Assembly (NCBI GenBank): GCA_043743635.1
Contig: JAYTWC010000571.1
Coordinates: forward strand, 1-37,308
Origin: Verrucomicrobiota bacterium
Lineage (GTDB): Bacteria > Verrucomicrobiota > Verrucomicrobiia > Opitutales > Opitutaceae
Direction: 5' to 3'
DNA: 37,308 bases
Every line of letters starts with the position of its first letter. The first letter of the stretch is position 1. The translations under genes were made by a program, and so were the position numbers. This document shows, one piece after another, positions 5,661 to 31,617 of this stretch. The notes beneath the pieces were generated by a model that searched no databases, was not told the origin of the DNA, and saw only the letters and a program-made list of their open reading frames with translations.

Positions 5661-6281
5661 GTGCCTCCCGAAAACCTAGTTTCCTTTAGCTTTACTGCTG
5701 CCTCGCTCCGTCCGGAGCTTATCCGGGTCATTGCGAACGCCTTTTTAGAAACGGGGTCCTGGGAGTTAGCCAAAAAAAAGATCCGTTCATCGAACGCCCT
5801 TCAGTCGCGCAGCCCCCGCACAGCGGTCAGAATGGAAATTGAGCTGAGACAGCGCCTCATGCGTCTCACTCCCGGCGAAATCCAATTGGCCGCCCACGGT
5901 ATCGCAGAGGAGCGCACGGCGATCGCATGGCTCGCCGCTTTGAAAGCGAGCCGCTACATTCACGCATTCGCGTCCGAAGTCCTCCGGGGCAAACTGTCCT
6001 CGCTCGATCCGGTGGTTCGAGCGTCCGACTACGAAACCTTTTTCGAGAACCAAAGCGCCGTCTATCCTTCGATCGCCACTCTGGCCACGTCGTCGCGAGC
6101 CAAGATACGTTCAATTCTGCTGACGATGATCTGCGAGGCCGGGATCGGTCAACGCGCTGGTCGCGAGGTTCGGATCCATCGGCCCGTTGTCCCTCCATCT
6201 GTTTATTCGGCACTGCTCGCCGATTCCCCACACTGGCTGGCCGGTTTTCTCGTGCCGGACTCAGAGATTCCTTCCAATTGA
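5661..6281 (+). CDS. brxA: BREX protein BrxA (DUF1819 family)
   Basis: It lies directly upstream of brxB/brxC. The sequence (FSFTAASL...NALQSRSPRTAVRMEIELRQRL..L...E...LA......E..AIAWLAALKASRYIHAFASEVLR.K) fits BrxA. The track ORF begins at ATG5472, but its first 63 codons are low-complexity, and an in-frame GTG5661 gives the typical length of about 206 aa. The start is therefore uncertain (5472 or 5661). Confidence 0.75.
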   Translation: MPPENLVSFSFTAASLRPELIRVIANAFLETGSWELAKKKIRSSNALQSRSPRTAVRMEIELRQRLMRLTPGEIQLAAHGIAEERTAIAWLAALKASRYIHAFASEVLRGKLSSLDPVVRASDYETFFENQSAVYPSIATLATSSRAKIRSILLTMICEAGIGQRAGREVRIHRPVVPPSVYSALLADSPHWLAGFLVPDSEIPSN

Positions 6282-6289
6282 CGCCCCCC

Positions 6290-6889
6290 ATGGCCGAAGA
6301 CACCGTCGAAACCCTATATCTCAAGCTTCGGAATCCGGACTTCCTCGCGATGAAGGGGCTGTCCGGTGAGGTGCCGATCTTCATCCACGCCTATGAGGCC
6401 ACCGAGGAGGATGTTGCCCGGCAAACCGCCGACGCCCTCACCACCCGACTGCGAAACGACGGCATCGCTTGCGCCAAAATTGACCTCTTTGAATTGGTTC
6501 TGGAGCAATTAGTCGAGGAGGGCCGCCTCGATCGCATCCTCGAAAAGGAGTCTCAAATCGGCAAAGCAAAGCTCTTTGAGACGATGACCAACCTCACCGA
6601 TGCCAAGACCCGCTTGGTGCCAAGGCTAATGCGCCGCCTGGAGGCAGAGGATGCCAAGCTTTCCATCTTAACGGGCGTCGGACGCGTGTATCCTTTCCTT
6701 CGGACACACACGATTCTCGATTCCCTACAGCCGGCAATGATGCGGCAGCCGGTAGTCATGTTTTTCCCCGGGCATTACACCCAAGAACAGGGCATCGGCT
6801 CCCAACTTCGCCTCTTTGGTTCGCTACCAGCCCCTATGCTCTATCGCCCCTACTATCGTGCCTTCAATCTCGCGCACTACCGAGTTTAA
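6290..6889 (+). CDS. brxB: BREX protein BrxB (DUF1788 family)
   Basis: Internal ATG6290 of track ORF 5927..6889 gives 199 aa, the expected size and position between brxA and brxC. The sequence reads MAEDTVETLYLKLRNPDFL...IPIFIHAYEA...GVGRVYPFLRTHTILDSLQ. Confidence 0.8.
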   Translation: MAEDTVETLYLKLRNPDFLAMKGLSGEVPIFIHAYEATEEDVARQTADALTTRLRNDGIACAKIDLFELVLEQLVEEGRLDRILEKESQIGKAKLFETMTNLTDAKTRLVPRLMRRLEAEDAKLSILTGVGRVYPFLRTHTILDSLQPAMMRQPVVMFFPGHYTQEQGIGSQLRLFGSLPAPMLYRPYYRAFNLAHYRV

Positions 6890-6893
6890 TCCC

Positions 6894-9800
6894 ATGCAAA
6901 TCCAGCAACTCTTTGCCAAGCCCGTCGATCGCCCCATCGAAGGCGTCATCAAGGCCGATGACTCCCGTCATCTTCGCACCGAGCTGGAAGAATACGTCGT
7001 CACCGCCGAGATAAACAAAGGACTGGGTGAATTCTGTGAGCGTTATCTCAACGAGACCAACGCCAATGGCGTGTGGATTTCCGGTTTTTTCGGGTCGGGT
7101 AAATCTCACCTGCTGAAAATCCTTTCCCTCATCCTCGACCAGAGTCCGCTGGAGGGGGGCGGTCGGGCCGCCGATCTGCTCCTGCCGCGCATCGAGGACG
7201 AAATCCTTCGAGGCGAACTATCCCGCATCACCAAGATCCCATCGCGCAGCATCCTTTTCAACATCGACCAAAAATCCGACGCCATCGGCGGCGACCGCGG
7301 CTCACCCGTGCTGGAGGTCTTCGTGAAAGTGCTCAACGAGCTTCAGGGCTACTACGCCCAGCTCCCCTACGTTGCTCAGTTCGAGGCCGATCTCGATGCC
7401 CGTGGTCAGCTCGCTCCGTTCAAAGCCGCTTACCTGAAGGCAACAGGACGCTCGTGGGAGAAAGATCTGCCCACGATCAACACCTTGGAGAACGAGGATT
7501 TTGCCAAGGTCTATGCCGAATTCTTCAGCAAAGCCTATGACGAGGGACTCCGCCTCTTCGATCGCGCCCGCGAGAGCTACCGCGTTTCAATCGAGTCGTT
7601 CGCTCAACGCGTACAGGCCTACCTCGCGAAACAGGGAAAAGATTTCCGTCTCAACTTTTTCGTCGATGAAGCCGGCCAGTTCATCGGCCAGGACACGAAG
7701 TTGATGCTCAATCTGCAAACCATCGCCGAATCCCTCAGCACGGTCTGCAAAGGACGTGCGTGGGTTCTCGTCACCTCACAAGGCGACTTGCAGCGCGTGC
7801 TCGGTGAGTTGGATGGTGCCGCCGCTCAGGATTTCACGAAGATTCAAGCGCGCTTCAAAACACGCCTCACACTGACCAGTGCCGATGTCCGCGAGGTCAT
7901 CCAAAAGCGATTGCTCGCCAAAAAGGAACCCGAGCCCGAGGTGCTGACCTCTATTTTCGATACAGAGAAAGATAACTTCCAGACCCTTTTACGCTTTGGC
8001 GATGGTTCGGTGGAATATAAGGGCTGGCGTGGCTCCGACGAGTTCTGCGCCTTCTATCCTTTTCATCCTTATCAGTTCGATCTCTTCCAACGTGCGATCG
8101 AACAATTATCCAGGCACAATGCATTTACCGGTAAACACACTTCGATCGGCGAACGGTCGATGCTCTCCGTGTTTCAAGAGGTCATTAAACAGCTAAAGCA
8201 AGACCCCGTCGGCCGCTTGGCGAGCTTCGATAAATTCTTCGAGGGCATAGCGACCGCATTGCAGGGTCAGCTTTTGACTTCGGTCCGCCAGGCCGAGCGC
8301 CAACTCGATAACCCTGTCGCGATCCGGATTCTCAAAGCGCTCTTCCTTCTCAAATGGGTACGCGAGTTCAAGGCCACACCACGCAACATCGCTATTCTCC
8401 TGCTCGATCAACCCACGGTGGATATCCGCGCCCACGAGAAAACCGTCCATGAAGCCCTCGCCTTGCTGGAGGGCCAGTCTTATCTCCAACATCACGGCGA
8501 ATGTTATGAATTCCTCACCGACGTCGAAAAAGACATCGAGGTCGAGATCAAGAACACCGACATCGATGATTCCGCCCTTGCGAAATTGGTTTCCGATATT
8601 CTCTACGCAGATATTCTGCGCGATCCCAAGATCCGCTACGAAGGCAACGGCCAGGACTACGCCTACGTGCGCCGACTCGATGACGAGTTGATGGGGCGGG
8701 ATGGCGACCTCGCGGTGAATATCATCACCACCGAACACACCAATCACGGTGACCTTGGTGTGCTCGCTGCGCAAAACACAGGTAAGCCTGAGCTGCTCGT
8801 CGTGCTGCCGCCTGACGCCCGGATGATGGACGAGGCGCGGCTGATTCTCAAAACCAACAAATATATCCAGCACAACACGGGCTTGGACATCGACGCAGCG
8901 CGGCGTTCAATTCTCACCCAGCGCGGGCAGCAAAACAGTGTGCGCCGAACCAATTTACAGGAACTATGCTCAGAACTGCTCGGCAAAGCACCTCTGTTTT
9001 TGAACGGTTCGCGACTCAGCGACATCGGTGAAGGCGATGCACGTAACCGCCTCGCCAAGGGCTGCCAGGCCCTCATCAGCTTCGCCTACCCAAGCCTGCG
9101 TATGCTCCGCGGCAATTATGACGAGCCCATGCTGGCGAAGACGCTTCTTGATGCTGACGATCTCCTCGCTGCCGGCGGTATGGCCCTCTCTGAGGCTGAA
9201 CAAGAGGTCCTCACCTATGTGATGCGCAACCAGGCCAGTGGAGAGCGCACCAGCGTCGAAGCCATCGTACGCGAACTGGGTCGCCGTCCCTACGGCTGGT
9301 ATCCTCTTGCGATCGTCACGCTTCTCGCCCGCCTGTTCCGGTTGGGCAAAGTGGAACTCCGCACCGCCGAATTGCTCGATGCCCGTTCTGCCCTAGAAGC
9401 ACTTCGCAATCCCCGCCAACATGGCAGTGTACGCGTGCGGCCTCAGGAAACTTTCGATGCCTCGAAGGTGAATGCTTTGAAACGCTTTCATCAGGATTTC
9501 TTCGACCGCACCAACCTTGGTACAGATCCACGCTCGGCCGGGCTTGCGACGGTCTCCGCCTTCGCGACCGAAAAGACGATCCTCAAAGACCTGCTCGCAC
9601 AGTCCACGCGATATCCGTTCCTCAGCACTCTGGATTCCGTTGCCGAGCGCATCGGCAAACTCGCCGATCGGGATTACGCCCATGTGATCAACCAACTCCC
9701 CGAGTTCCAAGATCCGCTGCTCGACGCCAAGCAGGACCTGCTCGATCCCGTCAAAAGCTTCATGGCCGGCGCCCAACGCACCGCCTACGACGAAGCGATC

Positions 9801-10406
9801 GCTTACCTCCGTGAAGAGGAGGCTAACTTCGCCGATCTCCCCTCAGCCGCCGTGCAGCCGCTGCGCGATCTCGCCTCCTCCTCCGCACCTTATCGCGGCC
9901 AGGTGCTGCCGTTGGCACGAACGGCGCTCACGCAAGTCCGCACCGAAATCGCCAAACGTCTGGAAGCCGAACGGACCACCGCGCTCGGAATCCTCGACGA
10001 GCGCGAGACTCAACTCCGGAGCACTCCAGAATTCCAAGGGCTCAACGACACCTCGATCCAACAAGTGCTGCGCCTGACCTCCGAGGCTCGGAAAACAATC
10101 AAAGAGGCCCGCTTCATCCCGGCGATTCGCGACCGCGTCTCGCGCTATACGGCGCAGGATTATCCCACCCAACTTGCCGTTGCCTCTAACTATGCCGCAG
10201 CTACCAAAAGCGCGGCATCCAGTCCTTTACCTGGAGCGGTCCAGGAAAGCCCGACGAAATCGCCGACCTACGTCGCTGCCACCTCCCTCCGCGCTTCCTG
10301 CGGCCTGTCCTACATCGCGAACGAGGCCGACCTCGACAAGTGGCTGGCTGCCTTGCGGTCGACCGCCGCCGCTGAACTGGCCAAGGGCAATCGGATCAGT
10401 CTTTGA
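6894..10406 (+). CDS. brxC: BREX ATPase BrxC/PglY (P-loop NTPase)
   Basis: 1170 aa from ATG6894, 4 nt after the brxB stop. Walker A is GFFGSGKSH and Walker B is RLNFFVDEAG. Size and position are typical of type 1 BREX BrxC. Confidence 0.9.
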   Translation: MQIQQLFAKPVDRPIEGVIKADDSRHLRTELEEYVVTAEINKGLGEFCERYLNETNANGVWISGFFGSGKSHLLKILSLILDQSPLEGGGRAADLLLPRIEDEILRGELSRITKIPSRSILFNIDQKSDAIGGDRGSPVLEVFVKVLNELQGYYAQLPYVAQFEADLDARGQLAPFKAAYLKATGRSWEKDLPTINTLENEDFAKVYAEFFSKAYDEGLRLFDRARESYRVSIESFAQRVQAYLAKQGKDFRLNFFVDEAGQFIGQDTKLMLNLQTIAESLSTVCKGRAWVLVTSQGDLQRVLGELDGAAAQDFTKIQARFKTRLTLTSADVREVIQKRLLAKKEPEPEVLTSIFDTEKDNFQTLLRFGDGSVEYKGWRGSDEFCAFYPFHPYQFDLFQRAIEQLSRHNAFTGKHTSIGERSMLSVFQEVIKQLKQDPVGRLASFDKFFEGIATALQGQLLTSVRQAERQLDNPVAIRILKALFLLKWVREFKATPRNIAILLLDQPTVDIRAHEKTVHEALALLEGQSYLQHHGECYEFLTDVEKDIEVEIKNTDIDDSALAKLVSDILYADILRDPKIRYEGNGQDYAYVRRLDDELMGRDGDLAVNIITTEHTNHGDLGVLAAQNTGKPELLVVLPPDARMMDEARLILKTNKYIQHNTGLDIDAARRSILTQRGQQNSVRRTNLQELCSELLGKAPLFLNGSRLSDIGEGDARNRLAKGCQALISFAYPSLRMLRGNYDEPMLAKTLLDADDLLAAGGMALSEAEQEVLTYVMRNQASGERTSVEAIVRELGRRPYGWYPLAIVTLLARLFRLGKVELRTAELLDARSALEALRNPRQHGSVRVRPQETFDASKVNALKRFHQDFFDRTNLGTDPRSAGLATVSAFATEKTILKDLLAQSTRYPFLSTLDSVAERIGKLADRDYAHVINQLPEFQDPLLDAKQDLLDPVKSFMAGAQRTAYDEAIAYLREEEANFADLPSAAVQPLRDLASSSAPYRGQVLPLARTALTQVRTEIAKRLEAERTTALGILDERETQLRSTPEFQGLNDTSIQQVLRLTSEARKTIKEARFIPAIRDRVSRYTAQDYPTQLAVASNYAAATKSAASSPLPGAVQESPTKSPTYVAATSLRASCGLSYIANEADLDKWLAALRSTAAAELAKGNRISL

Positions 10407-10537
10407 ACTCAACATTCAAGAACGATCCGCATTTCTCGTTGTGCGAAAATAATTTGTAAGCTATTACCCTCCATTTAACTAAACTTATAAAGCACGATAA
10501 ACTTGAATAGTTTACCGTGCATTGTAAGTATATCGTC
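10407..10537 (+). promoter_or_regulatory. AT-rich 131-bp spacer inside the BREX operon, candidate internal promoter/operator
   Basis: This is the only markedly AT-rich intergenic stretch inside the operon. It contains repeated TTGTAAG (10454-10460, 10522-10528) and TAAACTT motifs just upstream of the wHTH gene. No promoter elements were assigned with confidence. Confidence 0.35.
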
Positions 10538-11524
10538 ATGGTATCGCTCAAAGACCGGCTGATAAAGCATGTGGAAGCCCTCACCGGTGATCGCCTTGAT
10601 CTGTCCGCGAAGGAGGCTTCGTCACTGCCCTTGTTCCTACGCGAAAGGTATGCGGTGTTTTCCGCCCGGTTGTTTGGGCGAAAATCAATCATAGCCCTTG
10701 AAGCTGAAGGCTGGGAGATTGGGTCACCCGGCGAATATCGAAAGCATGCGGACGCCCTCAGCCAAACTCTCAATGAGCCGGTCGTGTTGGTTCTGCCAAT
10801 TCTCCCGTCCTATGCCAGAAATCGGATGGTCCAGATGGGCGTTCCGTTCATTGTCCCGGGCAGCCAAACCTTTCTCCCCGCCGGCTTGATTGATTTGCGT
10901 GAGCGGTTTGCCCAGCCCGGTCTCAAACGGCGCGAAACCCTCAGTCCTGCCGCGCAATGCACCCTCCTCTACCACCTGCTGCGCGGCCCGCTCGCAGGCA
11001 GGCCGCTCAAGGAGATCGCGGAGAAACTGCACTACTCGCCGATGATGATCACGAAGGTGAAAGACGAGTTTGAGGCGGCAGAAATCTGCCAGATTGTCCG
11101 GAGCGGTCGCTCAACCGTCTTGAATTTCACCGCAACCGGGTACGACCTTTGGAAACGCGTTGCTCCTCATCTGACTTCCCCCGTCAAAAAAACGCGTTGG
11201 GTAAATTGGGGTAAGCCAACAGCCCCCGCATTGCTTGCCGGGATGAGCGCGCTGAGCGAGCGCACCATGATCAGCGCCGAGCGCCTGCCCACCTATGCCC
11301 TGACGCTCACGGCCTATCAGGACCTGTTGGAGCGAGGGGGCATGGCAGGTTGCCGCGATGCCGAGAGCGCGACGGCAAGCATTGAGGTCTGGTCCTACAA
11401 TCCGCACCTCTTCGGCGACGTCCGGATGGTGGACCCGCTCTCCCTCTACCTGAGTCTCCGTGCGACAGAAGACGAGCGCGTTCAGCAGCAGCTGAATCGG
11501 CTTATCGAGGAGGTCAAATGGTAG
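10538..11524 (+). CDS. wHTH protein, AbiEi-like antitoxin/regulator candidate
   Basis: Track ORF starts at GTG10517, but ATG10538 (MVSLKDRL) is preferred. There is a central winged-helix-like segment (LLYHLLRGPLAGRPLKEIAEKLHYSPMMITKVKDEF) and a C-terminal VDPLSLYLSLRATEDERV motif like the partners of AbiEii NTases. Its 3' end overlaps the next gene by 7 nt. Confidence 0.55.
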   Translation: MVSLKDRLIKHVEALTGDRLDLSAKEASSLPLFLRERYAVFSARLFGRKSIIALEAEGWEIGSPGEYRKHADALSQTLNEPVVLVLPILPSYARNRMVQMGVPFIVPGSQTFLPAGLIDLRERFAQPGLKRRETLSPAAQCTLLYHLLRGPLAGRPLKEIAEKLHYSPMMITKVKDEFEAAEICQIVRSGRSTVLNFTATGYDLWKRVAPHLTSPVKKTRWVNWGKPTAPALLAGMSALSERTMISAERLPTYALTLTAYQDLLERGGMAGCRDAESATASIEVWSYNPHLFGDVRMVDPLSLYLSLRATEDERVQQQLNRLIEEVKW

Positions 11525-12300
11525 GGGGCCTCGATCTTTTTCGTGAGCGTTTCAAAGAATTTGAAGGCTCCTTTGTCCTGATTGGTGGAGCTGCCTGCGA
11601 CGAGTGGTTTGGGACCGCCGGGCTGGAATTCCGGGGCACCAAGGATCTCGATATCGTCCTGATCATCGAAGTGCTGTCCCCGGCTGCCATCAAGGCGCTG
11701 CGGACGTTTGTCTCCGACGGAGGTTATGAGATTCGCGAAAAAACCGAGGGAGTTCCAGTGCTCTATCGTTTTGCCAAGCCTAAGAACGAAGCTTTCCCAT
11801 ACATGCTGGAGTTCTTCAGCCGCAAACCTGAAGGCATCCAACTGGGCGAGAAGCAGGGCATCGTTCCCGTGCGGGCCGATGCAGATCAGCACAGCTTGTC
11901 GGCCCTGCTGCTGGATGACGCCTACTATTCGTTGATCCAAAAACACCATGCCGTTCACGACGGGCTCCCCTTTGCCACCGCGACCGCGCTCATTCCCCTG
12001 AAGGCCTTGGCCTGGCACAACCTGACCCGAGACAAAGCCGCCGGGCTTAAGGTTGATTCAAAGAATATCACCAAGCATCGAAACGACGTCTTCCGCCTAG
12101 CCGGCACTCTGCCCGGCCAGCCAGGTCCAGAACTGCCAAAGTCCATTACGGACGAGCTCGACCGTTTTCTCCATTCCTTCCCAGAGAAATCACCGGAATG
12201 GCCATCGATCCTCGCTGCGCTGAAAAACACCTTGGGCGGCAGGATTCAACCGGCTGCCTTGCGCTTGGCGATTCAGGTCTTTTTCCGTCTCACTCCATGA
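11518..12300 (+). CDS. Pol-beta-fold nucleotidyltransferase, AbiEii/AbiGii-like toxin candidate
   Basis: 260 aa. The NTase signature is FVLIGGAAC...GTKDLDIVL (GG-x-A ... D-x-D). Its stop overlaps the pglX start (ATGA at 12297-12300). Confidence 0.6.
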   Translation: MVGGLDLFRERFKEFEGSFVLIGGAACDEWFGTAGLEFRGTKDLDIVLIIEVLSPAAIKALRTFVSDGGYEIREKTEGVPVLYRFAKPKNEAFPYMLEFFSRKPEGIQLGEKQGIVPVRADADQHSLSALLLDDAYYSLIQKHHAVHDGLPFATATALIPLKALAWHNLTRDKAAGLKVDSKNITKHRNDVFRLAGTLPGQPGPELPKSITDELDRFLHSFPEKSPEWPSILAALKNTLGGRIQPAALRLAIQVFFRLTP

Positions 12301-15300
12301 ACCTTTCCGCCCTCAAGACCTTCGCCCCCGCCGTTCGCCTCCAACTGATGGAGGCTGTCACGCGCAAACTGGACTTCGTACTGACCGGGGACACCGCCGA
12401 TCTGCGCGCCATGAGCGCTCAGCGCGCGGTCTTGCGCGGTGAGGCCACGCGGAACCGTGCGGGGCTTGTCGAACGCGTCGCCTATATTTGGTTCAATCGC
12501 CTGGCTGCGCTTCGTTTCATCGATGCACAGGGTTGGCATCCGTTTGGCGCTCGCGTGCTCACCGCCAAAACCAGTGACGAGACCCAACCTGAACTCCTCC
12601 GTCTGGTTCGTTCCGGACAACTCCCCGCGGAGCTCGCACCGCACACCGATCCTGACCGGCTCAATCGCCTGCTCGATGGCGAGCTACCCTCGCCGAACCC
12701 GCAGGCCGAGGTTTATCGTCACCTCGTGCTCGCCGCCTGTCGCTTTTATCACGCATTGCTGCCCGCGCTGTTTGAAAAACTCGACGACGAAACCGAACTG
12801 CTCCTGCCCGACGATTTGCTCACGGAGCATTCTGTCGTTCACGGTTTCCGCACCGCAATCGCCGACGCCGACTGCGCGGAGGTCGAGATCCTGGGCTGGC
12901 TGTATCAATTCTATATTTCGGAAAAGAAGGACCAGGTCATGGCGCGAAAGAGCGCGGTACCCACAGAGGATATCCCTGCGGTCACCCAGCTTTTTACTCC
13001 GCATTGGATAGTTCGGTATCTCGTGGAGAATTCCCTCGGACGGCTTTGGTTGCTCAATCGGCCGCAGTCGAAACTCCGGGAAAAGATGCCTTACTATATC
13101 GAAGGTGAACCGGAGGCAGATTTCCTGAAGATCGGCAAACCGGAGGAAATAAAAATTATCGATCCGGCCTGCGGCAGCGGGCACATGCTCACGTATGCGT
13201 TTGATCTGCTCCAAGCGATCTACGAGGAAGAAGGTTATGCTCCGTCCGATATCGCGGGGTTGATCCTGCGGCACAATCTCCACGGCGTGGAAATCTGTGA
13301 TCGCGCCGCCACCCTCGCTGCCTTTGCGCTTTGCATGAAGGCGCGCAGCTGCGACAAGCGCTTCTTCAGCCGCGTGGCCCAACCGCAGATAATCGCTTTG
13401 CAGGAAGTGCGCTTTGAAGAAGGCGAACTTTCGGCCTATTTCAGTGCGCTCGGTGCTCAGCCTTCAACGCTCCACCCTGAATTCACTCGACTCCTCAACC
13501 AATTCGAAGAAGCCAAGAATTTCGGGTCGTTGATTCAACCCTGTCTGACCGAGCCGGAGATTCAGCGTGTCCGTTCCGAGATCGAAAATCGTAAATCGAA
13601 AATCGTAAACGACGCCGACCTCTTGGTCGGCGCGACGCACCTCAAAGTCCTTCGCGTGCTCGAACAAGCCCAGGCCCTCACCCAGCGGTATCACGTCGTC
13701 GTGGCTAATCCGCCGTATATGGGGAGCGGCTCGATGAATACAGGGCTAAAGACTTACGCAGAGACGTACTATGCGAGGTCACAATCAGACCTTTTCGCTA
13801 TGTTCATCGAAGCTAACCTCCGGTTGTCGCGATCTGGTGGCTATGCCGCTCTGATAACGATGCATAGTTGGATGTTCATCTCGTCCTTCGAAGAATTACG
13901 AAGTGCTTTAGTTACCCAGCACGCATTCCTGTCAATGATTCATCTCGGGCCTCGTGCCTTTGACTCAATTGGTGGGGAGGTCGTCCAGACGACCGCTTTC
14001 GTGCTTCAAACACGAAGGCCTACTAAACGCACGACTGTATTCAAGAGGCTTACGAAAGGCGCCTGTGAAGCGGAAAAACGGGCCCTATTTGAGGTGGAAG
14101 CTAACACCTACGTCCGCCCTGTTAACCTGTTTGAATGTGTTCCAGGGAAGCCTTTCGCGTATTGGGCAAGTCCGTCGCTTTTAACTGCCTTTAAGAAGGG
14201 CACTGCTCTTGGGGAGCTTGGTAAGCCAAGGAAGGGGCTCGTGACACTGGACGACCGCCGATTCACACGGAGCTGGTGGGAAGTAGATGGTTGTAATATC
14301 GCGCTCGGCTGCAAGACCCGCAACGCAGCAAAGGAGACGCAAAAAAAATGGTTTCCAATAAATAAAGGGGGTGGTTTCCGGCGATGGTTTGGTTTTGCTG
14401 AGCAAGTCATCAACTGGTATCGCGACGGAGAGGAACTCAAGTCATTCATCGTCAGTCGCTATGGCGGCGGATCATATACCAAAGAAATTCGCAGTGAAGA
14501 ATACTATTTCAAACCGTCAATAACGTGGGGAAAAATAAACACCACGGCGCCGAGCTTTAGAGTCAGCCCAGGTGGATTCATCATGGGAGATGCGGGCCCC
14601 TGTATATTTATCGAGCTGGATTTGCTTCCAGTTCTTGGCCTACTGAACTCCAAAGTAAGCCACTCAGTTATCGAGTTGCTGTGCCCGACAGTGAACGCAG
14701 GTTCTGGTGACATCTCGAAAATACCCGTGTTGTTTGCCCCGAGCCGAAGTGATCACGGAACGGTAGTATCGGAGGCCGTAACGATTTCGCGCGCCGACTG
14801 GGACAACTTTGAGACCTCATGGGATTTTCGCGACCAGCCGTTGCTGCGGTCGGGGCTGAAGGGCGCGACGCTGGAGACGAGCTGGCGGAATTGGGAGGCG
14901 CAGAGCACCGCCGCCATCCGGCGTATGCAAGAATTGGAGACGGAGAACAATCGGCTCTTTATTACCGCCTACGGCCTCAACGGCGAATTGTCGCCGGAAG
15001 TGCCCGAGGAGCAAATCACCCTCGCCCGCGCCGACGCCCGCCGCGACATGGCCGCGTTCCTCTCCTACGCCGTCGGCTGCATGATGGGCCGCTACTCGCT
15101 CGACCTCCCCGGCCTCATCCTCGCCGACGCCGGCGCGACCGTGCAGGACTACCTAGCCAAAGTACCCAAACCAACCTTCGTTCCCGACGAGGATGGCATC
15201 CTGCCCGTACTCGACGGCGAATGGTTCGAGGACGACATCGTCAGCCGCTTCCGCGAATTCCTCCGCGTGACCTTCGGCGACGCCACGCTCAACGAGAATA

Positions 15301-15773: not shown

Positions 15774-15777
15774 ACCC

Positions 15778-19408: not shown

Positions 19409-19455
19409 ATGTCCTTCCAAACGCCATCGCCGATGCACTGGAGAACATTGAGTAG

Positions 19456-19575
19456 TTGGCCCAAAGCCGCCTCGAACTCGACCTCAACGACGGCGCAAAG
19501 GTCAACAATCTCAAACTCGGCGAATCCCTCTCGCATCAACCGTCCAGAGGTAAAAAAACTGATTGGTCATCCTAG
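19456..19575 (+). pseudogene. Relic 3' end of a pglX-type methyltransferase gene (40 codons including stop)
   Basis: Reads LAQSRLELDLNDGAKVNNLKLGESLSHQPSRGKKTDWSS* and is about 90% identical at nt level to 15660-15737. It is immediately preceded by an in-frame TAG (19453-19455). Its stop lies 9 nt before the next gene's start. Confidence 0.75.
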
Positions 19576-19596
19576 ACTGCCCCAATGACTAATCAG
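19559..19596 (+). promoter_or_regulatory. 12-bp stem / 14-nt loop hairpin that sequesters the start codon of the 19585 gene
   Basis: CUGAUUGGUCAU (19559-19570) pairs with AUGACUAAUCAG (19585-19596), giving 11 Watson-Crick pairs plus one G-U. The right arm begins with the AUG. Confidence 0.4.
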
Positions 19597-20541
19597 CAGC
19601 GCATTGAAGATTTCCTTCAACCCAAACCTAGCGGTTGGTGTGACAAATGCCTGTCCATTGAACTTACCATAACGCCGACCAATCAAGTGAACGGCATATG
19701 TGCTAAGTCCCAGCTGATTTGTCGGTCGGTTGGGGTCTGTGATGGTTGCGGCGAGAATCGACAGATTAACACATTTAGACCTGACTCAGATCCGATTTCG
19801 CCCCCGCCGCGAAAACCGAAACAGGCAAAGACTAAGGTGGAAAATTACCTGCGTGAGGAAGACATCAAGGAGAGGATCAATAGCACACTGGTCGAAGCAC
19901 TCGGAATACCTGCGCAAGACTACTATTCTCAAATGGGGTTTTGTAATCTCCTCCTGCTGAAATCCGGCCTCGCTCGCATTCACGATATAATCACCCTGAA
20001 ACTCACCCTGGCACTGGTGGAACGGATGGGGCAGCGATTCAATCTCGACGAAGCCGCGTTGGCCAAACTCAGGCAATCCGTGAGCGGGATCCATCCGAAT
20101 GCCGCAGGATTTGATCTTGATATCAAAGACCCCAACCTCATCGGCGAAGTGAAGGGGAATATTCCGGTGAACAAAGGATCGACCTTTGGCGCAGACCAAC
20201 TCAAGGGGCTGAGAAACGACGTGCTTCAAATGCTAGGCCATCCTGCTCGGGCCAATGAAAAGAACGAGCCATCTGAACGAGCTAAAATCAATCGTGCCGG
20301 GCGTGATAAAGCCATCAAAGTCCTCGGTCTTTACGACTCGCCTGAAGTGAGAGCAGCCACCGACAAGTGGCGAAAGAGCCTCATGGCCTCACCAGCGTGG
20401 AAGCCGCTGAGCGTCTTCTCGATTCAGGAACTACCAGAAACCGGCAATCTCTCGCCTGATATCGTTTACCTCATATATCTCACGCCGAAGCATGGGATAG
20501 ATCCAATCACGTCTAGCCTCGCAACAAAGGAGAATGAATGA
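19585..20541 (+). CDS. Hypothetical protein: N-terminal Zn-ribbon (CDKC...CDGC) plus PD-(D/E)xK-like motif
   Basis: 318 aa. The candidate nuclease core is GFDLDIKDPNLIGEVKGNIP (D ... E-x-K). Its stop overlaps the start of the DUF262 gene (ATGA at 20538). Confidence 0.55.
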   Translation: MTNQQRIEDFLQPKPSGWCDKCLSIELTITPTNQVNGICAKSQLICRSVGVCDGCGENRQINTFRPDSDPISPPPRKPKQAKTKVENYLREEDIKERINSTLVEALGIPAQDYYSQMGFCNLLLLKSGLARIHDIITLKLTLALVERMGQRFNLDEAALAKLRQSVSGIHPNAAGFDLDIKDPNLIGEVKGNIPVNKGSTFGADQLKGLRNDVLQMLGHPARANEKNEPSERAKINRAGRDKAIKVLGLYDSPEVRAATDKWRKSLMASPAWKPLSVFSIQELPETGNLSPDIVYLIYLTPKHGIDPITSSLATKENE

Positions 20542-22733
20542 GCGTCTCCTCTGCCATCGACCCGACGGCGGGGCCTTCCAGTTTTGCTCTGCCACTACGG
20601 CATATCGCCTCCTGGCATGACATCCCTGAAATCACCGAACGTCCGCAGCCACGAGCAAGCGTGCCCGTGTTGCAACGCGGCCTCGTTTGGAACCCTGCGC
20701 AGATCGAATTACTTTGGGACTCGATTCTTCGAGGATTCCCAATCGGAGCGTTAGTTTTGAGCGCCAAAATATCGGGGCAAACCAAGGCCAATGAAGAGAC
20801 AAGAACCGATATCACACATCATTTGCTAGATGGGCAACAACGATGCGATGCTATCGCGCTTGGTTATAAAGATCCGTTCGGCACCTTGCATGGACAATCT
20901 GAAAGCAAAGCCGGCACATCCATTCTTTGGCTTGATCTCGATCCCCTAAAAAATCAGTGGAGCACGCGGGAATTCGTCGTCCGCCTGACCACGCCCTCGC
21001 ACCCGTGGGGTTATACGCGAAACGATGATGCCTTTCCGCTCGGCGCACAAATCATCCGGGAAGCTCTGAAACGTATCGGCCAAAATCCTGCGGCAGAAAA
21101 TTACCGGCGGCCGACACCCGCCGAGCTTTGTCCTCAAGCTGCGAAAACACCAGTACCCTTGGCCTGGCTGCTCCTCAATGGGCAAGAGGCTGATTTTTGG
21201 GGCACTCTGCTCACGCACTTACCGGAGAAGGATGATTTGCCGTGGCACGGCAGCCTCCGCGATTTCCTTAAGGACCCAGAGAAAGAGCCGCAACGTACAC
21301 GTATTTTGAATGCGGTCCGGCGAATCGAGCACACCAGAATCATTGGCCTATGTGCGCCAAATTTGGACTTGGATTCCCGGCAGGAGACTGAGAGTGCGCC
21401 CGAGCGCGCCAATATTTCCAGTATCGAGCACCTCTTTCAGCGGCTCAATCAGCAAGGCACTCCGCTCGACGGTGAGGAGCTGGCCTACTCTATGATCAAG
21501 GCCTACTGGCCGGAGCTCGCAAGTCCCATAGACACAATCGAGAAACCGATGCCTGCCACTCGGCTAATTTCACTTGGTATCCGCGCCGCATTGGCTGGAG
21601 AGAATCGCGAACACCTTCCCGCCGCCTTGGGAGTAAGCCAAATCCGCAAGTTGGCGGGCAAACAGGATGACCGGACATCGCTCGTATATAAATACATTAA
21701 CAATGACCTGGCGCACGGGTGCAAACGGGTGAGCCAATGGCTGCGCTACGATGCAGAGCTAAACCCGAGTGGGCTCCTTCCGGTGCATATCGCCTGTATA
21801 GCCCATGACTCGCCGGACCTTTTCCTGCTGCTACTAACCTTCGCCCAACGCCCAGACACAGATTGGCAGATCCCAGAGTCAGAGCGAGCGCGTTGCATAC
21901 AAGCCATGGCTACAGTCGTGCATTGGTTCGGTCGCGACAAACCGGCCATTGCCAACCGCCTTTTTGCGGCCTGCGGAGAGCACATCACCCACCAAAAGAT
22001 CCAACTCGCTTTAGCCGGGGCGCTGCAAGCGGGCCACCTCCGCCCTGTCCACTCTCCGAAGACAGTCGAGGCCTTTTTCCATGAAATGCCTCAGACCGTC
22101 CTTCTGAATTGGAACTGGGGGACCATAGGACATGGCGACAAGTCTGACGAAGAGCGTAAGAAAATCTGGGATCGCTGGGGCGAGTTTCTCTGGTTCAGAG
22201 ACAAGAAAGAGCTGCTCGTGTATGCCCAACGCGATTTTCTCCATCGGCGATTTCCCGAATACGATCCGGCCCGGAAAGATTTTTGGAAGGGCCACAACCG
22301 TCCGTGGGATTACGACCACATCCTGGCCAATACCTACGTTCACGGTAAGCAGGGTGATTATAAAAGCGCTTGTGCGGAATGGGTGAACACCATTGGAAAT
22401 TTCCGAGCTTGGCCGATGGAGGACAATCGTTCGGATCAAGAGGAGACCGCGCAGAAGAAAGTACCGGAGACCGATGCGACATCGAAAACAAACTCGCGAA
22501 GAGACAGTTTTCTCGAAAACGATAACCTCGCTGCATTCTCTCAGGGGCACGAGACAAGGAAGAAACCGGAACTCGCGGCGGCTTTCATCGCAGCCTGCCG
22601 CGATCGAATGCTCAGAATCTATCGGACTTGGTATGAATCGGTCGGAGTTGCAGATTTGATCACCCCAGATCAAAAACCTACTCGTGCCATTGAATCACAC
22701 CCAACCTCACTGATCGCTTCGGCGACGCCTTAA
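20538..22733 (+). CDS. DUF262/DUF1524 protein, GmrSD-family type IV restriction enzyme (BrxU-like)
   Basis: 731 aa. The N-terminal DUF262 motifs are LQRGLVWNPAQIELLWDSILRGFPIG and DGQQR. The C-terminal His-Me finger-like region is WDYDHILA...NTIGNFRAWPMEDNRSD. The position inside a BREX locus parallels BrxU. Confidence 0.8.
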   Translation: MSVSSAIDPTAGPSSFALPLRHIASWHDIPEITERPQPRASVPVLQRGLVWNPAQIELLWDSILRGFPIGALVLSAKISGQTKANEETRTDITHHLLDGQQRCDAIALGYKDPFGTLHGQSESKAGTSILWLDLDPLKNQWSTREFVVRLTTPSHPWGYTRNDDAFPLGAQIIREALKRIGQNPAAENYRRPTPAELCPQAAKTPVPLAWLLLNGQEADFWGTLLTHLPEKDDLPWHGSLRDFLKDPEKEPQRTRILNAVRRIEHTRIIGLCAPNLDLDSRQETESAPERANISSIEHLFQRLNQQGTPLDGEELAYSMIKAYWPELASPIDTIEKPMPATRLISLGIRAALAGENREHLPAALGVSQIRKLAGKQDDRTSLVYKYINNDLAHGCKRVSQWLRYDAELNPSGLLPVHIACIAHDSPDLFLLLLTFAQRPDTDWQIPESERARCIQAMATVVHWFGRDKPAIANRLFAACGEHITHQKIQLALAGALQAGHLRPVHSPKTVEAFFHEMPQTVLLNWNWGTIGHGDKSDEERKKIWDRWGEFLWFRDKKELLVYAQRDFLHRRFPEYDPARKDFWKGHNRPWDYDHILANTYVHGKQGDYKSACAEWVNTIGNFRAWPMEDNRSDQEETAQKKVPETDATSKTNSRRDSFLENDNLAAFSQGHETRKKPELAAAFIAACRDRMLRIYRTWYESVGVADLITPDQKPTRAIESHPTSLIASATP

Positions 22734-22746
22734 ATTCGATTCCCGC

Positions 22747-25251
22747 ATGAAGCGCATCCACGAAAGCCTCAAACTCGTTCTCCAGCGCCACCGGCTCGTT
22801 TTCTGGTATGACGCGACCCGCGAATGGGAGAAAGCCTACGAAGCCTTCGTTGCCGACGGAGTGCGTAAAATCACAGTCGCGGGCACGGAGTTTGGCGCCA
22901 AAGTTGCCATCCATCGTGCACCCGAGGAACGGTTCCTCGTCTATCTACCCAGCGCCCGCCCCCTCGATGCGGACAACTGGCTGCTCGATCTCTTGCTCCA
23001 GGGTCATGAGTACAAAGCCGATCGCGCTTCACTCGCATTGCAGGATGTCGGTCTTCCCTACGAACTGCGGCCCGTGATCGAGGCGCATGTGAGCTTTTTC
23101 GATTCGCCCAAACGAATTGAGACGTTGCGCGGATTGCTCGTGTCAAACGAGGAGCCTGCCTCCCTTCGGCGAAAGCTCATGGCGGTAGCGGCTGGTTCAA
23201 CTTTGCCCGAGATTGATGCCGTGTTGCTGGCCTTCCTCGCCCGCACTCAAGAAGCTCAAGGCAACGACCTGGTCGATATGGTACAAGGAACATTTGGCGG
23301 TTTTGGCTTGACCGTTCCGTTTTGGCGAGAGGTAAACCTCGCTTTCAGCTACGAAAGTGAAACGCCGTCACTGAAGGACTTTTCGCGGTCGCTCTTTCGG
23401 GCCGCCAACCCACTCGACCACGGGATAAAGCTGAGCGCACACGCGCAGGTGTTTCTCCAACACTGGAAAGACAGCCAGGCATTTAGTCCCGCCTATCGTC
23501 GTTGGGCCGCGCTGATGGAAAGCGAACTCAACCTTGACCATCAGCTGGACGCCCTGGATGACATGCGGCTGCTCGGCAATTGTGATGCCTTTCCTCTGAT
23601 GGAACGCTACGTTTTGCATCGGCTTTGCGGAGCGTTTGAGACCGACAGCCTGTCCAGCACCGAGCTACTGGCCCGCATCCAACAACGAAAGAGCTCTTTT
23701 TGGTACAGCGATCACCGTCACGGTTACGCCGCGCTGGAGCAGGCCATCGACCTTAAGCAACGGCTCGCTGGTGCTGAGTTAAGAATCGAGTCAATCGACG
23801 TCGGTATTCAGCGGTACACGACAACGTGGCATCGCATCGATACGGCCTATCGCAAGTTTCACTTCCATGCGCGCAGCTACGGTCAGATCGGGCTTTTGGG
23901 CCGAATTGCCGAACGAGTTGAAAAGACCTATCTGGCTAACTTCTTGCTACCGCTAGCAGATCGCTGGGGCGACCAAGTTGCAAAGCTGCCAGCGTGGCCA
24001 GGAGAGGTTTCGGTGGCGAAGCAGGTGGATTTCTACGACCGCTACGTGAAGCCATTTGTCGAGAAGGGACAAAAGGTCTGCGTTATTATTTCTGACGCAC
24101 TTCGATACGAGATCGGTGTGGAACTGATGGAGCGTCTGCTTGCCGAAAACCGGTGGAAAGCGGAAATCGAGCCCCTGTTAGGCGTATTGCCAAGTTATAC
24201 CCAGCTCGGCATGGCCGCACTTCTACCTGGATCGGTTCGGTCGATAAATCTCGATACCCGCACGGTGACAATCGACGGCAAGTCTTCCGCTGGCACTGAA
24301 GCCAGAAATGAAATTCTCGCGGCCGCAGTTTCATCACCGGCGGGTGCGTTGAAGGCAGAGGATTTCATGGAGATGAATACCGGGACCGAAGCTCGCGCCG
24401 TGATCCGTGATCACCAAGTCATCTACATCTACCACAATGTCATTGATGACACCGGGGACAAACTCGCCACCGAAGCACAGACCACCGAGGCGATCGAAGA
24501 GGCACTCGATGGTCTGCTAAAGCTGATAAAAAAAGCAGTGAATGCTAACGCCAGCCAGATACTGCTCACCGCCGACCACGGGTTTCTATTTCAACAAACT
24601 GATGTTTCAGAGACGGACGACTTACCGCTTCCTTCGGCCGAGTGGCTCTTCCCCCACCGGCGTTTCGCACTCGGACGCAACCTCAGGTCTTCAACGGGGG
24701 TAAAGACTTTCACCGCCGAGGCGCTCGGTCTGACCGGCGACTTTGTCGCGGCCTTCCCGCTGGCACTCGGACGATTTCCACTAAAAGGATCTGGCAAACG
24801 ATTCGTCCACGGAGGCTTCAGCCTACAGGAAGTGCTGGTGCCGGTTCTGCGTATCCATAAAACCCGTACAGACGACACTGAACGCGTCGAAATCGACCTG
24901 CTCCGAGCTCCAACCAAGATCACGACGGGACGCGTGTCGCTCACGCTTTACCAAGACCGACCGACAGCGACTAAGGTGCTCGGCCGTAACCTACGTGTGG
25001 GTATCTTCACAGTGGATGGAGTAGCCATCTCGGAACTCAAAACACTCGCGTTTGACTCAACTGAGGCAGAGGCGCGCCAGCGTGAAACCGTGATCGATTT
25101 GGCGCTCTCCCGTGCGGCCGATCCTTTCAACGGGAAAGAAGTCGAGATCCGCATTGAGGAAGTGACCGCCGGCAACCAGAATGCCCTGCCCTATAAATAC
25201 CACCGCCTGAAATTGCAGAAACCATTCGCAACCGACTTCGATGAGCTCTGA
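22747..25251 (+). CDS. pglZ: BREX alkaline-phosphatase-superfamily protein PglZ
   Basis: 834 aa. The N-terminus has RLVFWYD. PglZ-domain motifs are VCVIISDALRYEIG and LLTADHGF. It is followed by brxL with an 11-nt overlap. Confidence 0.9.
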   Translation: MKRIHESLKLVLQRHRLVFWYDATREWEKAYEAFVADGVRKITVAGTEFGAKVAIHRAPEERFLVYLPSARPLDADNWLLDLLLQGHEYKADRASLALQDVGLPYELRPVIEAHVSFFDSPKRIETLRGLLVSNEEPASLRRKLMAVAAGSTLPEIDAVLLAFLARTQEAQGNDLVDMVQGTFGGFGLTVPFWREVNLAFSYESETPSLKDFSRSLFRAANPLDHGIKLSAHAQVFLQHWKDSQAFSPAYRRWAALMESELNLDHQLDALDDMRLLGNCDAFPLMERYVLHRLCGAFETDSLSSTELLARIQQRKSSFWYSDHRHGYAALEQAIDLKQRLAGAELRIESIDVGIQRYTTTWHRIDTAYRKFHFHARSYGQIGLLGRIAERVEKTYLANFLLPLADRWGDQVAKLPAWPGEVSVAKQVDFYDRYVKPFVEKGQKVCVIISDALRYEIGVELMERLLAENRWKAEIEPLLGVLPSYTQLGMAALLPGSVRSINLDTRTVTIDGKSSAGTEARNEILAAAVSSPAGALKAEDFMEMNTGTEARAVIRDHQVIYIYHNVIDDTGDKLATEAQTTEAIEEALDGLLKLIKKAVNANASQILLTADHGFLFQQTDVSETDDLPLPSAEWLFPHRRFALGRNLRSSTGVKTFTAEALGLTGDFVAAFPLALGRFPLKGSGKRFVHGGFSLQEVLVPVLRIHKTRTDDTERVEIDLLRAPTKITTGRVSLTLYQDRPTATKVLGRNLRVGIFTVDGVAISELKTLAFDSTEAEARQRETVIDLALSRAADPFNGKEVEIRIEEVTAGNQNALPYKYHRLKLQKPFATDFDEL

Positions 25252-27409
25252 CCCAATGCTGCCTCCCGTTCCGCCCGAACCTGCATCTGCGGAAGAGACA
25301 ACGCCCCCACCCCCACCGGTCAATCTCGGCCCCTTGGATCGGAAGATTGTCGACGCCTTCCCCGGCTTGGTTGTCCGCAAAGACATCACCAAGGGCCTGA
25401 AACAAAATGCGGTCGTGCCCACGTACGTTCTCGAATATCTGCTGGGCCAGCACTGCGCCACGGACGATGAGGCAACCATCCGCACGGGCCTGGAGTCGGT
25501 AAAACGGATTCTCGCCAAGCACTACGTTCATCGCAACGAAGCGGAATTGACGAAGTCGATCATCAAGGAACGCAGTCGGCACAAAGTCATCGACAAGGTG
25601 ACGGTGGAGCTGAACGACAAGATCGGTATTTATGAGGCGGAGTTTACCAATCTTGGCCTGCGCAAAGTACCCACGCCCGACGATTTCGTCCGCCGCCATC
25701 CTAAACTATTGGTAGGTGGAATCTGGTGTATCACGGAAATCACTTACGAGGTGAACGAGGATGGCAAGGCCAGCCCTTGGCACATCGATAGCCTCAAGCC
25801 GATTCAGGTTTCGAAAGTCGACTACGAGGAATACCTGAAAGCTCGGGCCAAATTTAGCACAGACGAATGGATCGACACGCTCGTACAGAGCCTCGGCTTC
25901 AATCCCGAAATGCTGACTCGCCGGGCAAAGCTACTTCAGCTGTTGCGCTTCGTGCCGTTCTGCGAACGTAACTACAACCTGCTTGAGCTCGGTCCGAAGG
26001 GTACCGGCAAATCTCACGTTTATGCGGAATTTTCTCCACATGGCATGTTAATCTCGGGGTCGGAAGTCACCGCGCCAAAACTTTTTGTCAGCAATTCATC
26101 GGGCAAGATCGGCCTCGTCGGCTTCTGGGATTGCGTGTGCTTCGATGAGTTCGCCGGAAAGGACAAGAAAGTCGACAAGGCCCTTGTCGACATCATGAAA
26201 AACTACATGGCCAACCGGTCATTTTCACGCGGCATCGAGCAGCTCACTGCGGAGGCCTCGATGGTTTTCATGGGCAACACCAAGAAGTCGGTCGCGTACA
26301 TGTTGAAGCACTCACACTTCTTCGAGCAGCTGCCGGACAAATATATCGATTCCGCGTTTCTCGATCGTCTGCATGCGTTCAGCCCTGGCTGGGAAGTCGC
26401 GCCGATCCGCAACGATCTTTTCACGAACGGCTATGGCTTCATCGTCGATTACTTCGCCGAAATTCTGAAACACCAGCGTACAGAAGATTTCACCAGTGCT
26501 TACAAGACGGGTTTTGAAATTACGTCTGAAATCTCCACTCGTGATCAGACCGGCCTTGAGAAGACATTTTCCGGGATGATGAAGATTCTGCATCCTCACG
26601 GTGGTGCCACGGCTGACGAGATCGAAGAACTGCTTTCGTTTTCGATGGAATGCAGACGACGCGTGCGGGAGCACTTGCTGCGCATCGACGACACCTTCAA
26701 GCCACACGACTTCATCTATCGCAGGAAGGATAGTGGCGCGACGAAGACCGTGCTCACGCCCGAGGAAATTCAATATCCGGCCTTCGCAGGAGCCCATCGC
26801 CCCCAACTCGATGGAGAGACAAATGAACCGCTCGCCGAAACCATCGCCAGCGCCACGGCCAACGAACCAATCAGTAAAATTGTGGCCCCTGCCGCCGTCA
26901 TACCCAAAATTGTAGCTACTGTTGGTGCACAGCCTGGGCATATCGTGATTCCGGAGAACACGAAGGGATGGAGCTATCGCCGGATATTCGCGAAACACCT
27001 AGAGGGCGCGCACAAAATCACCGTACGCGATCCCTTCGTTCGTGCATTCTTTCAAGCCCGCAATTTCATGGAGTTTCTCCAGGTCGTGCATGACGTGGTA
27101 CCCGAAGGCGACGAGGTGGAGGTGCATTTGATCACCCAGTCCGACATGGACACATGCGTGAAGCAGGAAGAAAACCTAAACCAATTGGTGCAGAGTTTTA
27201 CCGGCTCCCGTGTCGCATTCTCGTGGGAGTTAGACCACAGCCCCAACTTCCACGCGAGAAGCATTACAACAGACAGCGGCTGGAAAATCATGATCGACCG
27301 TGGTCTCGATATATTTCAACGCTTCGAGACCGGCGCTTTTTCTCTGGAGCAAGCAATGCAGGAAGCGCGGCTTACACGCGGCGCCGAAGTGACGTACGTT
27401 AAGCTTTGA
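25241..27409 (+). CDS. brxL: BREX Lon-like protease/ATPase BrxL
   Basis: 722 aa. It shows the typical BrxL N-terminal region (FPGLVVRKD...VPTYVLEYLLGQ), Walker A (GPKGTGKSH) and Walker B-like (CFDEFAG). It is the last gene of the type 1 BREX order. Confidence 0.9.
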   Translation: MSSDPMLPPVPPEPASAEETTPPPPPVNLGPLDRKIVDAFPGLVVRKDITKGLKQNAVVPTYVLEYLLGQHCATDDEATIRTGLESVKRILAKHYVHRNEAELTKSIIKERSRHKVIDKVTVELNDKIGIYEAEFTNLGLRKVPTPDDFVRRHPKLLVGGIWCITEITYEVNEDGKASPWHIDSLKPIQVSKVDYEEYLKARAKFSTDEWIDTLVQSLGFNPEMLTRRAKLLQLLRFVPFCERNYNLLELGPKGTGKSHVYAEFSPHGMLISGSEVTAPKLFVSNSSGKIGLVGFWDCVCFDEFAGKDKKVDKALVDIMKNYMANRSFSRGIEQLTAEASMVFMGNTKKSVAYMLKHSHFFEQLPDKYIDSAFLDRLHAFSPGWEVAPIRNDLFTNGYGFIVDYFAEILKHQRTEDFTSAYKTGFEITSEISTRDQTGLEKTFSGMMKILHPHGGATADEIEELLSFSMECRRRVREHLLRIDDTFKPHDFIYRRKDSGATKTVLTPEEIQYPAFAGAHRPQLDGETNEPLAETIASATANEPISKIVAPAAVIPKIVATVGAQPGHIVIPENTKGWSYRRIFAKHLEGAHKITVRDPFVRAFFQARNFMEFLQVVHDVVPEGDEVEVHLITQSDMDTCVKQEENLNQLVQSFTGSRVAFSWELDHSPNFHARSITTDSGWKIMIDRGLDIFQRFETGAFSLEQAMQEARLTRGAEVTYVKL

Positions 27410-27949: not shown

Positions 27950-27956
27950 ACCATAT

Positions 27957-28796: not shown

Positions 28797-28814
28797 CTTT
28801 CAGCCACTCCTAAA

Positions 28815-31598: not shown

Positions 31599-31617
31599 GT
31601 ATATTGTATTTGCACAC

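Follow-up and report, generated by a model that had tools for sequence, protein, structure and literature searches.

A type 1 BREX operon with four embedded modules at two internal junctions that probably serve as cargo slots

The window analyzed here, a 37,308-nucleotide stretch of contig JAYTWC010000571.1 that is a portion of a 96.8-kb metagenome scaffold, contains a complete type 1 BREX operon that is crowded with embedded cargo but not unique. Thirteen close-packed genes, all on the forward strand, lie within positions 5661-27409. We read the locus as an intact BREX operon whose two internal junctions, brxC-pglX and pglX-pglZ, are cargo slots for four autonomous modules exchanged by recombination, and we assign this reading a probability of about 0.8. 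The evidence consists of the gene identities, the geometry of the junctions, the variability of both junctions among relatives, the autonomy of the modules, and relics of core genes. The features of the operon are as follows.

brxA, 5661-6281, forward strand: BREX core gene, GTG start inferred (PADLOC BrxA E 2.9e-31; Pfam PF08849 E 2.2e-29)
brxB, 6290-6889, forward strand: BREX core gene (PADLOC BrxB E 1.5e-48; Pfam PF08747)
brxC, 6894-10406, forward strand: core ATPase (PADLOC BrxC E 0 over 1-1170/1172; Pfam BrxC domains)
AT-rich spacer, 10407-10537, forward strand: 131 bp, 34% GC versus about 57% in genes, part of the gene 4-gene 5 cassette
gene 4, 10538-11524, forward strand: 328-aa protein with a winged helix-turn-helix (wHTH, MarR-like), putative antitoxin/autorepressor
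gene 5, 11518-12300, forward strand: 260-aa protein of nucleotidyltransferase (NTase) fold, putative distant AbiEii/MenT-like toxin, overlapping gene 4 by 7 nt
pglX, 12297-15773, forward strand: BREX methyltransferase (PADLOC PglX E 0 over 1-1151; Pfam Eco57I/N6_Mtase)
lmuA, 15778-16977, forward strand: Lamassu/ABC-3C effector with CTD7 (PADLOC LmuA E 4.1e-57; Pfam PF20283 E 1.4e-37)
lmuC, 16974-17465, forward strand: ABC-3C middle component MC3 (PADLOC LmuC E 2e-13; Pfam PF20131 E 3.2e-51)
lmuB, 17462-19408, forward strand: SMC/ABC-like ATPase (PADLOC LmuB E 6.9e-123; Pfam DUF3732/LmuB_C E 9.4e-50)
pglX 3' relic, 19457-19532, forward strand: direct repeat of pglX 15661-15736 (92% over 76 nt, blastn E 1e-27)
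gene 10, 19585-20541, forward strand: 318-aa protein with an N-terminal wHTH bearing CxxC pairs and an alpha/beta domain
DUF262 (GmrSD-like) gene, 20538-22733, forward strand: 731-aa protein, putative type IV (modification-dependent) restriction enzyme
pglZ, 22747-25251, forward strand: BREX core gene (PADLOC PglZ E 1.4e-234; Pfam PF08665)
brxL, 25241-27409, forward strand: BREX core gene (PADLOC BrxL E 1.4e-297; Pfam BrxL_N, BrxL_ATPase, MIT_C)

The core genes follow the canonical order brxA-brxB-brxC-pglX-pglZ-brxL, and all six are assigned by the hidden Markov models of PADLOC and Pfam, as the first-pass annotation of this DNA had expected. All six are intact and free of frameshifts; BrxC, PglX, PglZ, and BrxL align with their profiles over full length, and the catalytic motifs NPPY (PglX) and Walker A (BrxC) are legible in the translation. 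A gene caller places the brxL start at 25256 (717-aa gene call in L166). BrxL residues 576-721 form an MIT_C/phospholipase-D-like (HKD) domain (Pfam PF16565, E 7e-34), and such a BrxL-HKD fusion is a variant already described (PMC12839542). The identical locus was found in the source scaffold and one independent Logan assembly only, with the same gene order in both.

Both junctions hold co-oriented, abutting cargo, two genes at brxC-pglX and five at pglX-pglZ, again as first annotated. At the brxC-pglX junction, the gene 5 stop and the pglX start codon share an ATGA at 12297-12300 (4 nt). Beyond pglX, lmuA starts 4 nt past the pglX stop, the three lmu genes are joined to one another by ATGA overlaps, and the DUF262 gene ends 13 nt before the pglZ start. 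These positions and gaps, together with the 131-bp AT-rich spacer, agree with the earlier reading of the sequence.

The comparison covered 160 type 1 BREX loci whose PglX is at least 40% identical to that of the window, with core genes located by tblastn; many of the loci are contigs of metagenome-assembled genomes (MAGs), and their open reading frame (ORF) starts are approximate. The best PglX match reaches 63% identity in 185,579 species genomes and 67% in JGI metagenomes. In the species genomes the top PglX matches belong to Verrucomicrobiota MAGs, which makes this phylum the probable source of the window. With a junction counted as empty at ≤150 nt and as occupied at ≥500 nt, brxC-pglX is empty in 42 and occupied in 39 of 83 measurable loci, and for pglX-pglZ the counts are 52 empty and 78 occupied among 132. 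Cargo fills both junctions in 26/73 loci, and both are empty in 19/73. Both positions thus vary among relatives, cargo-free examples included, and the invariant gene content that the first-pass annotation had held against its own proposal is not what the relatives display, because L086 and other loci differ in their modules. The cargo is at least as long as the window's 8,863 nt in 9/73 loci, and in one relative, L002, the complete set of 13 genes recurs in unchanged order at about 60% protein identity. The impression of an unusually dense locus therefore does not survive the comparison.

The nearest locus, L086, differs from the window by discrete blocks. Its organization is brxABC-g4g5-pglX-LmuACB-pglZ-brxL, without the relic, gene 10, and the DUF262 gene, and the shared proteins are similar (BrxC 85%, gene 5 88%, LmuB 82%, PglZ 77%, and BrxL 86%). 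Across the related loci the cargo ORFs group by sequence into 114 clusters. Most cargo elsewhere consists of established or candidate defence genes, and representatives of other clusters match families such as HEC-05/BrxU, PtuA, PDC-S27, PDC-S02, AbiLi/AriA, and RmrA/capP-like proteins. Placement is junction-specific: the gene 4-gene 5 pair occurs at brxC-pglX only and the other modules at pglX-pglZ only. The pair is the commonest brxC-pglX cargo, present in 13 other loci. In another BREX locus, L169 (4919-11815), it shares that junction with DUF6998 and DUF4357 genes, and a KAP NTPase gene follows pglX there.

Where three modules had been counted in the window, four are separable. Gene 10 is the sole cargo between pglX and pglZ in L091, L094, and L161, and the DUF262 gene occurs without gene 10 in L043 and L088. 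A single two-gene system of gene 10 and DUF262 was considered and rejected, as related loci carry either one on its own.

The relic in the pglX-pglZ cargo, already noted from the sequence, is real. It differs from pglX at six positions, all non-synonymous and in conserved residues; it is immediately preceded by an in-frame TAG and has lost the canonical PIPGLAxKEE tail. In other loci, functional pglX 3' ends are 80-88% identical to it. The relic ends 52 nt before gene 10, which fits a fossil of a former pglX-to-gene 10 junction of the kind still live in L091 and L094. An assembly artefact is unlikely, since the independent Logan assembly has the same arrangement. No relics of brxC 3', pglX 5', or pglZ 5' ends were found at the window junctions.

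Comparable scars recur in the clade: pglX 3' relics lie in direct orientation downstream of functional pglX in 14/145 related loci. Examples are L112 (16350-16746), L139 (6315-6455), and L092/L134/L155, and in L106 a 117-nt relic (11485-11601), stop codon included, stands immediately before lmuA. L018 (14865-14918 and 17134-17181) and L047 (16757-17139 and 21704-21798) carry two relics each. The core itself is mosaic in L043, whose PglZ is 78% identical to the window's, against at most 58% in other genome-set loci, and whose PglX is 58% identical. The GC content at third codon positions (GC3) is 0.55-0.63 in the pglX-pglZ cargo versus 0.63-0.69 in core genes. From these sequence patterns we infer that cargo is exchanged by recombination with one end anchored in pglX and an illegitimate join at the other.

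Under the proposed mechanism, modules would be gained, lost, and shuffled via recombination anchored at the conserved ends of BREX core genes, leaving scars, and the survivors would be those insertions that keep the operon co-oriented and close-packed. Tight cargo-to-core packing is the rule across the clade and not special to the window. In 21/30 occupied brxC-pglX and 23/32 occupied pglX-pglZ junctions, the final cargo ORF and the core gene that follows are no more than 20 nt apart or overlap by no more than 20 nt; 15 and 12 of these tight junctions, respectively, are 4-nt overlaps. Cargo-free loci have tight junctions in 30/33 (brxC-pglX) and 19/20 (pglX-pglZ) cases. The pglX-4 nt-lmuA spacing is kept in L086, L002, and L007.

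Inspection of the 20-mers upstream of the genes reveals a GGAGG-type Shine-Dalgarno motif ahead of gene 5, lmuA, lmuC, and the DUF262 gene, and none of this type ahead of brxB, brxC, pglX, and pglZ. The overlaps, together with the motifs absent at core genes, make translational coupling plausible; pglX and pglZ, which have no Shine-Dalgarno of their own, would probably rely on read-through and re-initiation. The codons of the PglX C-terminal KEE(D/E) motif, AAGGAGGAG, double as the Shine-Dalgarno of the next gene (15752-15777). In the window this gene is lmuA, with GGAGG 9 nt before the ATG, and in cargo-free loci it is pglZ. In 36/56 loci the PglX tail contains GGAG or GAGG, versus 16% of control windows. 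A terminator scan stayed at chance level.

A more specific form of the exchange, which we hold tentatively and consider possible at best, is that core-gene termini act as portable homology arms of an integrase-free cassette exchange. The termini concerned may be the PglX C-terminal motif with its Shine-Dalgarno, the brxC 3' end, and the pglX 5' end. If this holds, an incoming cassette would supply a new pglX 3' end and push the old end downstream as a relic, so that relics would record the order of acquisition. The AbiE-like pair formed by genes 4 and 5 could then leave BREX with stubs of about 55 codons of brxC and about 80 codons of pglX. Its autoregulated promoter would drive the operon from pglX onward, and the cargo would set BREX expression, not the reverse.

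Stub-flanked copies of this pair do exist. For both genes 4 and 5, the nearest homologues come from L081-L085, which are non-BREX loci amid metabolic genes (gene 5 86-90% and gene 4 70-95% identical), and they are flanked by a brxC 3' stub of 51-55 codons and a pglX 5' stub of 77-83 codons. The stub-flanked pairs include L081 (8720-11010), L082, L084 (8219-10458), and L085; stub lengths are similar in two lineages with differing surroundings. The AT-rich spacer is retained in L081 and L082, with 81% nucleotide identity over 113 nt between the window's spacer and the region upstream of gene 4. These copies may reflect erosion of BREX around an addictive pair or a cassette that moves together with its brxC and pglX arms. 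More distant copies have no stubs: one adjoins an integrase fragment (L168), another lies within a non-BREX defence island (L171), and a third is the one at the BREX brxC-pglX junction of L169.

Genes 4 and 5 have no match at E<0.01 in Pfam, PADLOC, or NCBIfam, and the PADLOC AbiE models do not match gene 5. The window's gene 4 matches Pfam AbiEi_2 over residues 218-316 at a sub-threshold E of 0.06; a MarR match is present in 20/33 members of its family, and JGI homologues are labelled 'MarR family regulator'. Gene 5 belongs to a large family, with 2,210 word-indexed homologues and 2,931 representatives at 50% clustering, across which a GG..T.D.D motif is invariant. Pfam AbiEii (DUF1814, PF08843) is matched at E≤0.1 in 31/45 diverse family members (best 3.6e-6), and by the window's gene 5 at E 0.099 and 13 bits, below the cut-off of 22.5. 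An AlphaFold2 (AF2) model of gene 5 (pLDDT 82) gives weak best Foldseek matches to Pol-beta-type NTases. Searches of Protein Data Bank (PDB) sequences yield nothing significant for genes 4, 5, and 10 singly or for the family profiles of genes 4 and 5; the best PDB matches for the cargo queries are MenT1 and an NTase-like protein (E 0.1-0.2, weak), and the weak profile match of the gene 5 family is to MenT1 8an4.

The pair resembles AbiE systems (AbiEi/AbiEii and MenAT) in gene content and order, gene overlap, upstream palindrome, wHTH regulator, and GG..DxD NTase, but its own proteins stay sub-threshold and are therefore best placed in a sister family. Five nucleotides separate the imperfect, 24-nt palindrome (10480-10503/10509-10532) from the gene 4 start. 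The palindrome core, GCACGATA..TATCGTGC, is found again ahead of gene 4 in L081 and L086, where both arms have changed, and the spacer that holds the palindrome is a probable operator/promoter. We read the pair as a putative distant AbiE-like toxin-antitoxin or abortive-infection module with a predicted autoregulated promoter.

The trio following pglX had been called 'ABC-3C'. The three-gene module with ABC-3C Pfam domains stands, and the name gives way to Lamassu, as PADLOC identifies it. CTD7, MC3, and DUF3732/LmuB_C all score above the Pfam cut-offs, which places the trio in Lamassu type II (with LmuC), and its content and order are those of the DdmABC-type LmuA-LmuC-LmuB arrangement.

Gene 10 has no match in Pfam, PADLOC, NCBIfam, or PDB sequences and only 23 homologues among 5.8 billion proteins. 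The few homologues bearing a source name come from Verrucomicrobiota/Opitutaceae MAGs, and some have no N-terminal CxxC/wHTH domain. Three residues, D177, E188, and K190 (D177..E188-x-K190), are invariant in the family and sit on a beta-hairpin of the AF2 model (pLDDT 88). Because of this invariance, the model and alignment suggest a putative PD-(D/E)xK nuclease.

The DUF262 protein has a clear N-terminal GmrSD_N domain (71.9 bits, cut-off 33.2) with a legible LLDGQQR motif. Its C-terminal DUF1524 region scores 16.3 bits with GmrSD_C, below the cut-off of 23, and a DYDHI..N motif is visible there by eye. Similarity to known embedded enzymes is confined to the N-terminal part: PADLOC HEC-05 matches residues 39-82 only (E 2.6e-14) and PDB BrxU 7p9k residues 41-105 only (E 3.7e-4), and full-length BrxU/HEC-05 similarity was not found. 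True HEC-05 proteins (E 2.7e-193) are present in other related loci. NCBIfam returned nothing for any cargo gene.

By analogy with these families, immunity at the locus would be layered: BREX would act on DNA that is unmodified, and the GmrSD-like enzyme would take modified DNA. The Lamassu module and the AbiE-like pair would serve as abortive back-ups.

Several observations weigh against cargo slots with recombinational exchange. Because the loci were selected on PglX similarity and taken with 10 kb of flank on each side, high cargo loads are censored. The AbiE assignment is sub-threshold for the window's own gene 4 (E 0.06) and gene 5 (E 0.099), and Foldseek on gene 10 finds a wHTH only, weakly, and no nuclease at E<0.08. 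A sigma-70 consensus scan finds no forward-strand promoter in 4700-24600, where matches are fewer than in shuffled sequence; the consensus may not fit the phylum, and the scan is uninformative because the genome is likely from Verrucomicrobiota. Finally, the junction-specific placement and the order kept in L002 could reflect more functional integration than passive slots allow.

That last point leads to the most serious competing explanation, in which the embedded genes are not independent cargo but auxiliary or back-up effectors that have become integrated in this BREX lineage and depend on BREX physically or through regulation. Their trigger might be, for example, PglZ nicking or BREX inhibition, as proposed for auxiliary nucleases (PMC12839542). 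Conservation of the 13-gene order in L002 at about 60% protein identity, the strict junction specificity, the ATGA overlaps that tie cargo to core genes, and the 4-nt pglX-lmuA gap conserved in three other loci all favor dependence, and layered or back-up effectors and PrrC-type guarding of embedded systems have been proposed in the literature. Close relatives, however, keep an intact BREX while lacking some or all modules, and genes 4 and 5 also occur as a pair outside BREX. The Lamassu, GmrSD, and AbiE families, moreover, are known to work autonomously. BrxU alone is sufficient (PMC8565348). We consider dependent effectors unlikely.

The locus could also be a decaying BREX whose expression was broken by insertions, so that the cargo, chiefly the addictive toxin-antitoxin-like pair, is what persists. 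The pairs in L081-L085, flanked only by brxC 3' and pglX 5' stubs, suggest that BREX can erode around genes 4 and 5, and the window has its own pglX relic. Against decay, the six core ORFs are full length relative to the profiles with NPPY and Walker A legible, frameshifts are absent, and the junctions preserve coupling; we regard this explanation as improbable. Still less probable, to the point of being negligible, is that the relic belongs to a programmed, shufflon-type phase variation that swaps PglX C-termini. PglX is strongly enriched among programmed-inversion targets, with partial pglX copies nearby (PMC9881135), but the 76-nt relic with its six non-synonymous changes has lost the conserved tail. 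Because it is a direct and not an inverted repeat and no recombinase gene lies in or adjoining the operon, we reject the shufflon. Exchangeable cargo at the two junctions remains the preferred reading.

Beyond the operon, a BrxR-type gene (wHTH-WYL-WCX) was not found directly upstream of brxA. A WYL+WCX (BrxR-like) regulator is encoded on the same strand at 29917-30993, 2.5 kb downstream of brxL, and a WYL protein 39% identical to it adjoins the non-BREX gene 4-gene 5 copy in L171. Three further co-oriented genes follow brxL at 27431-29330, at spacings of 21, 7, and 18 nt. They encode proteins of 172 aa (no match), 279 aa (no match), and 171 aa (with DUF2726), have no homologues among 165 related loci, and may form a third, 3'-appended cargo block. 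GC content falls to 0.45-0.47 at 30500-32000, versus about 0.55 elsewhere, a patch that spans an ORF at 30978-31598 (no family match) and the start of a reverse-strand metallophosphoesterase gene.

The window brings four putative defence layers together in one BREX operon with close relatives that differ by single modules, and is therefore suited to tests of co-regulation, guarding, or hitch-hiking. 'Guilt by embedding' nominates two uncharacterised candidates, gene 10 and the AbiE-like pair, the latter part of a family with about 2,900 cluster representatives that stays under the thresholds of Pfam and PADLOC. The relics and stubs provide a sequence-level handle on how cassettes enter and exit BREX loci.

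Embedding of defence genes in BREX is already established, and the window is a rich further instance. Payne et al. 2024 (10.1101/2024.01.29.577857), the source of the PADLOC HEC and PDC models, describe embedded systems in BREX, DISARM, type I restriction-modification (RM), and Hma loci; in their survey, 17,432 genes are embedded in BREX, DISARM, or RM systems and 96.7% are co-oriented with the host system. As in the window, these genes are nested between core genes, proposed to be co-regulated, and often of known defence families. The accessible part of that work does not analyse junction choice, stop/start geometry, core-gene relics, or multi-module stacking. The window's AbiE-like pair and gene 10 match no PADLOC v2 model.

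Two characterized loci carry cargo at one of the two junctions each. BrxU lies between brxC and pglX as the sole embedded gene of the pEFER type 1 BREX (Picton et al. 2021, PMC8565348). It is likewise a GmrSD-family DUF262 enzyme inside type 1 BREX, and it complements BREX by targeting modified DNA; the window's DUF262 protein differs in standing at pglX-pglZ and in matching BrxU over about 65 N-terminal residues. In the Salmonella StySA BREX, PARIS occupies the pglX-pglZ position, and internal transcription start sites in this cargo feed pglZ-brxL (Zaworski et al. 2022, PMC9009780). These start sites bear directly on the question of whether cargo or BREX sets expression. PARIS is a two-gene module, absent from the E. 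coli HS relative (PMC9009780), but StySA has one module at one junction, and its cargo is an OLD-ABC ATPase with DUF4435 and not Lamassu, GmrSD, or an AbiE-like pair.

A survey of more than 4,000 taxa reports REase, HNH/GmrSD, OLD-ABC, HEPN, and Schlafen genes in or next to BREX loci (NAR 2026, PMC12839542). It argues for functional integration and not for cassette turnover, and it does not mention Lamassu, ABC-3C, or AbiE. In concept only, the window resembles integrons and defence hot spots flanked by core genes, which also present promoter-proximal, co-oriented, interchangeable cassettes at a fixed site. The window has no integrase or attC sites, and exchange appears to proceed via homology of BREX core-gene ends. 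The general published picture of BREX embedding is unchanged by this locus; it contributes statistics on the two junctions, relics and stubs of core genes, and two uncharacterised candidate modules, with side findings that are modestly new.

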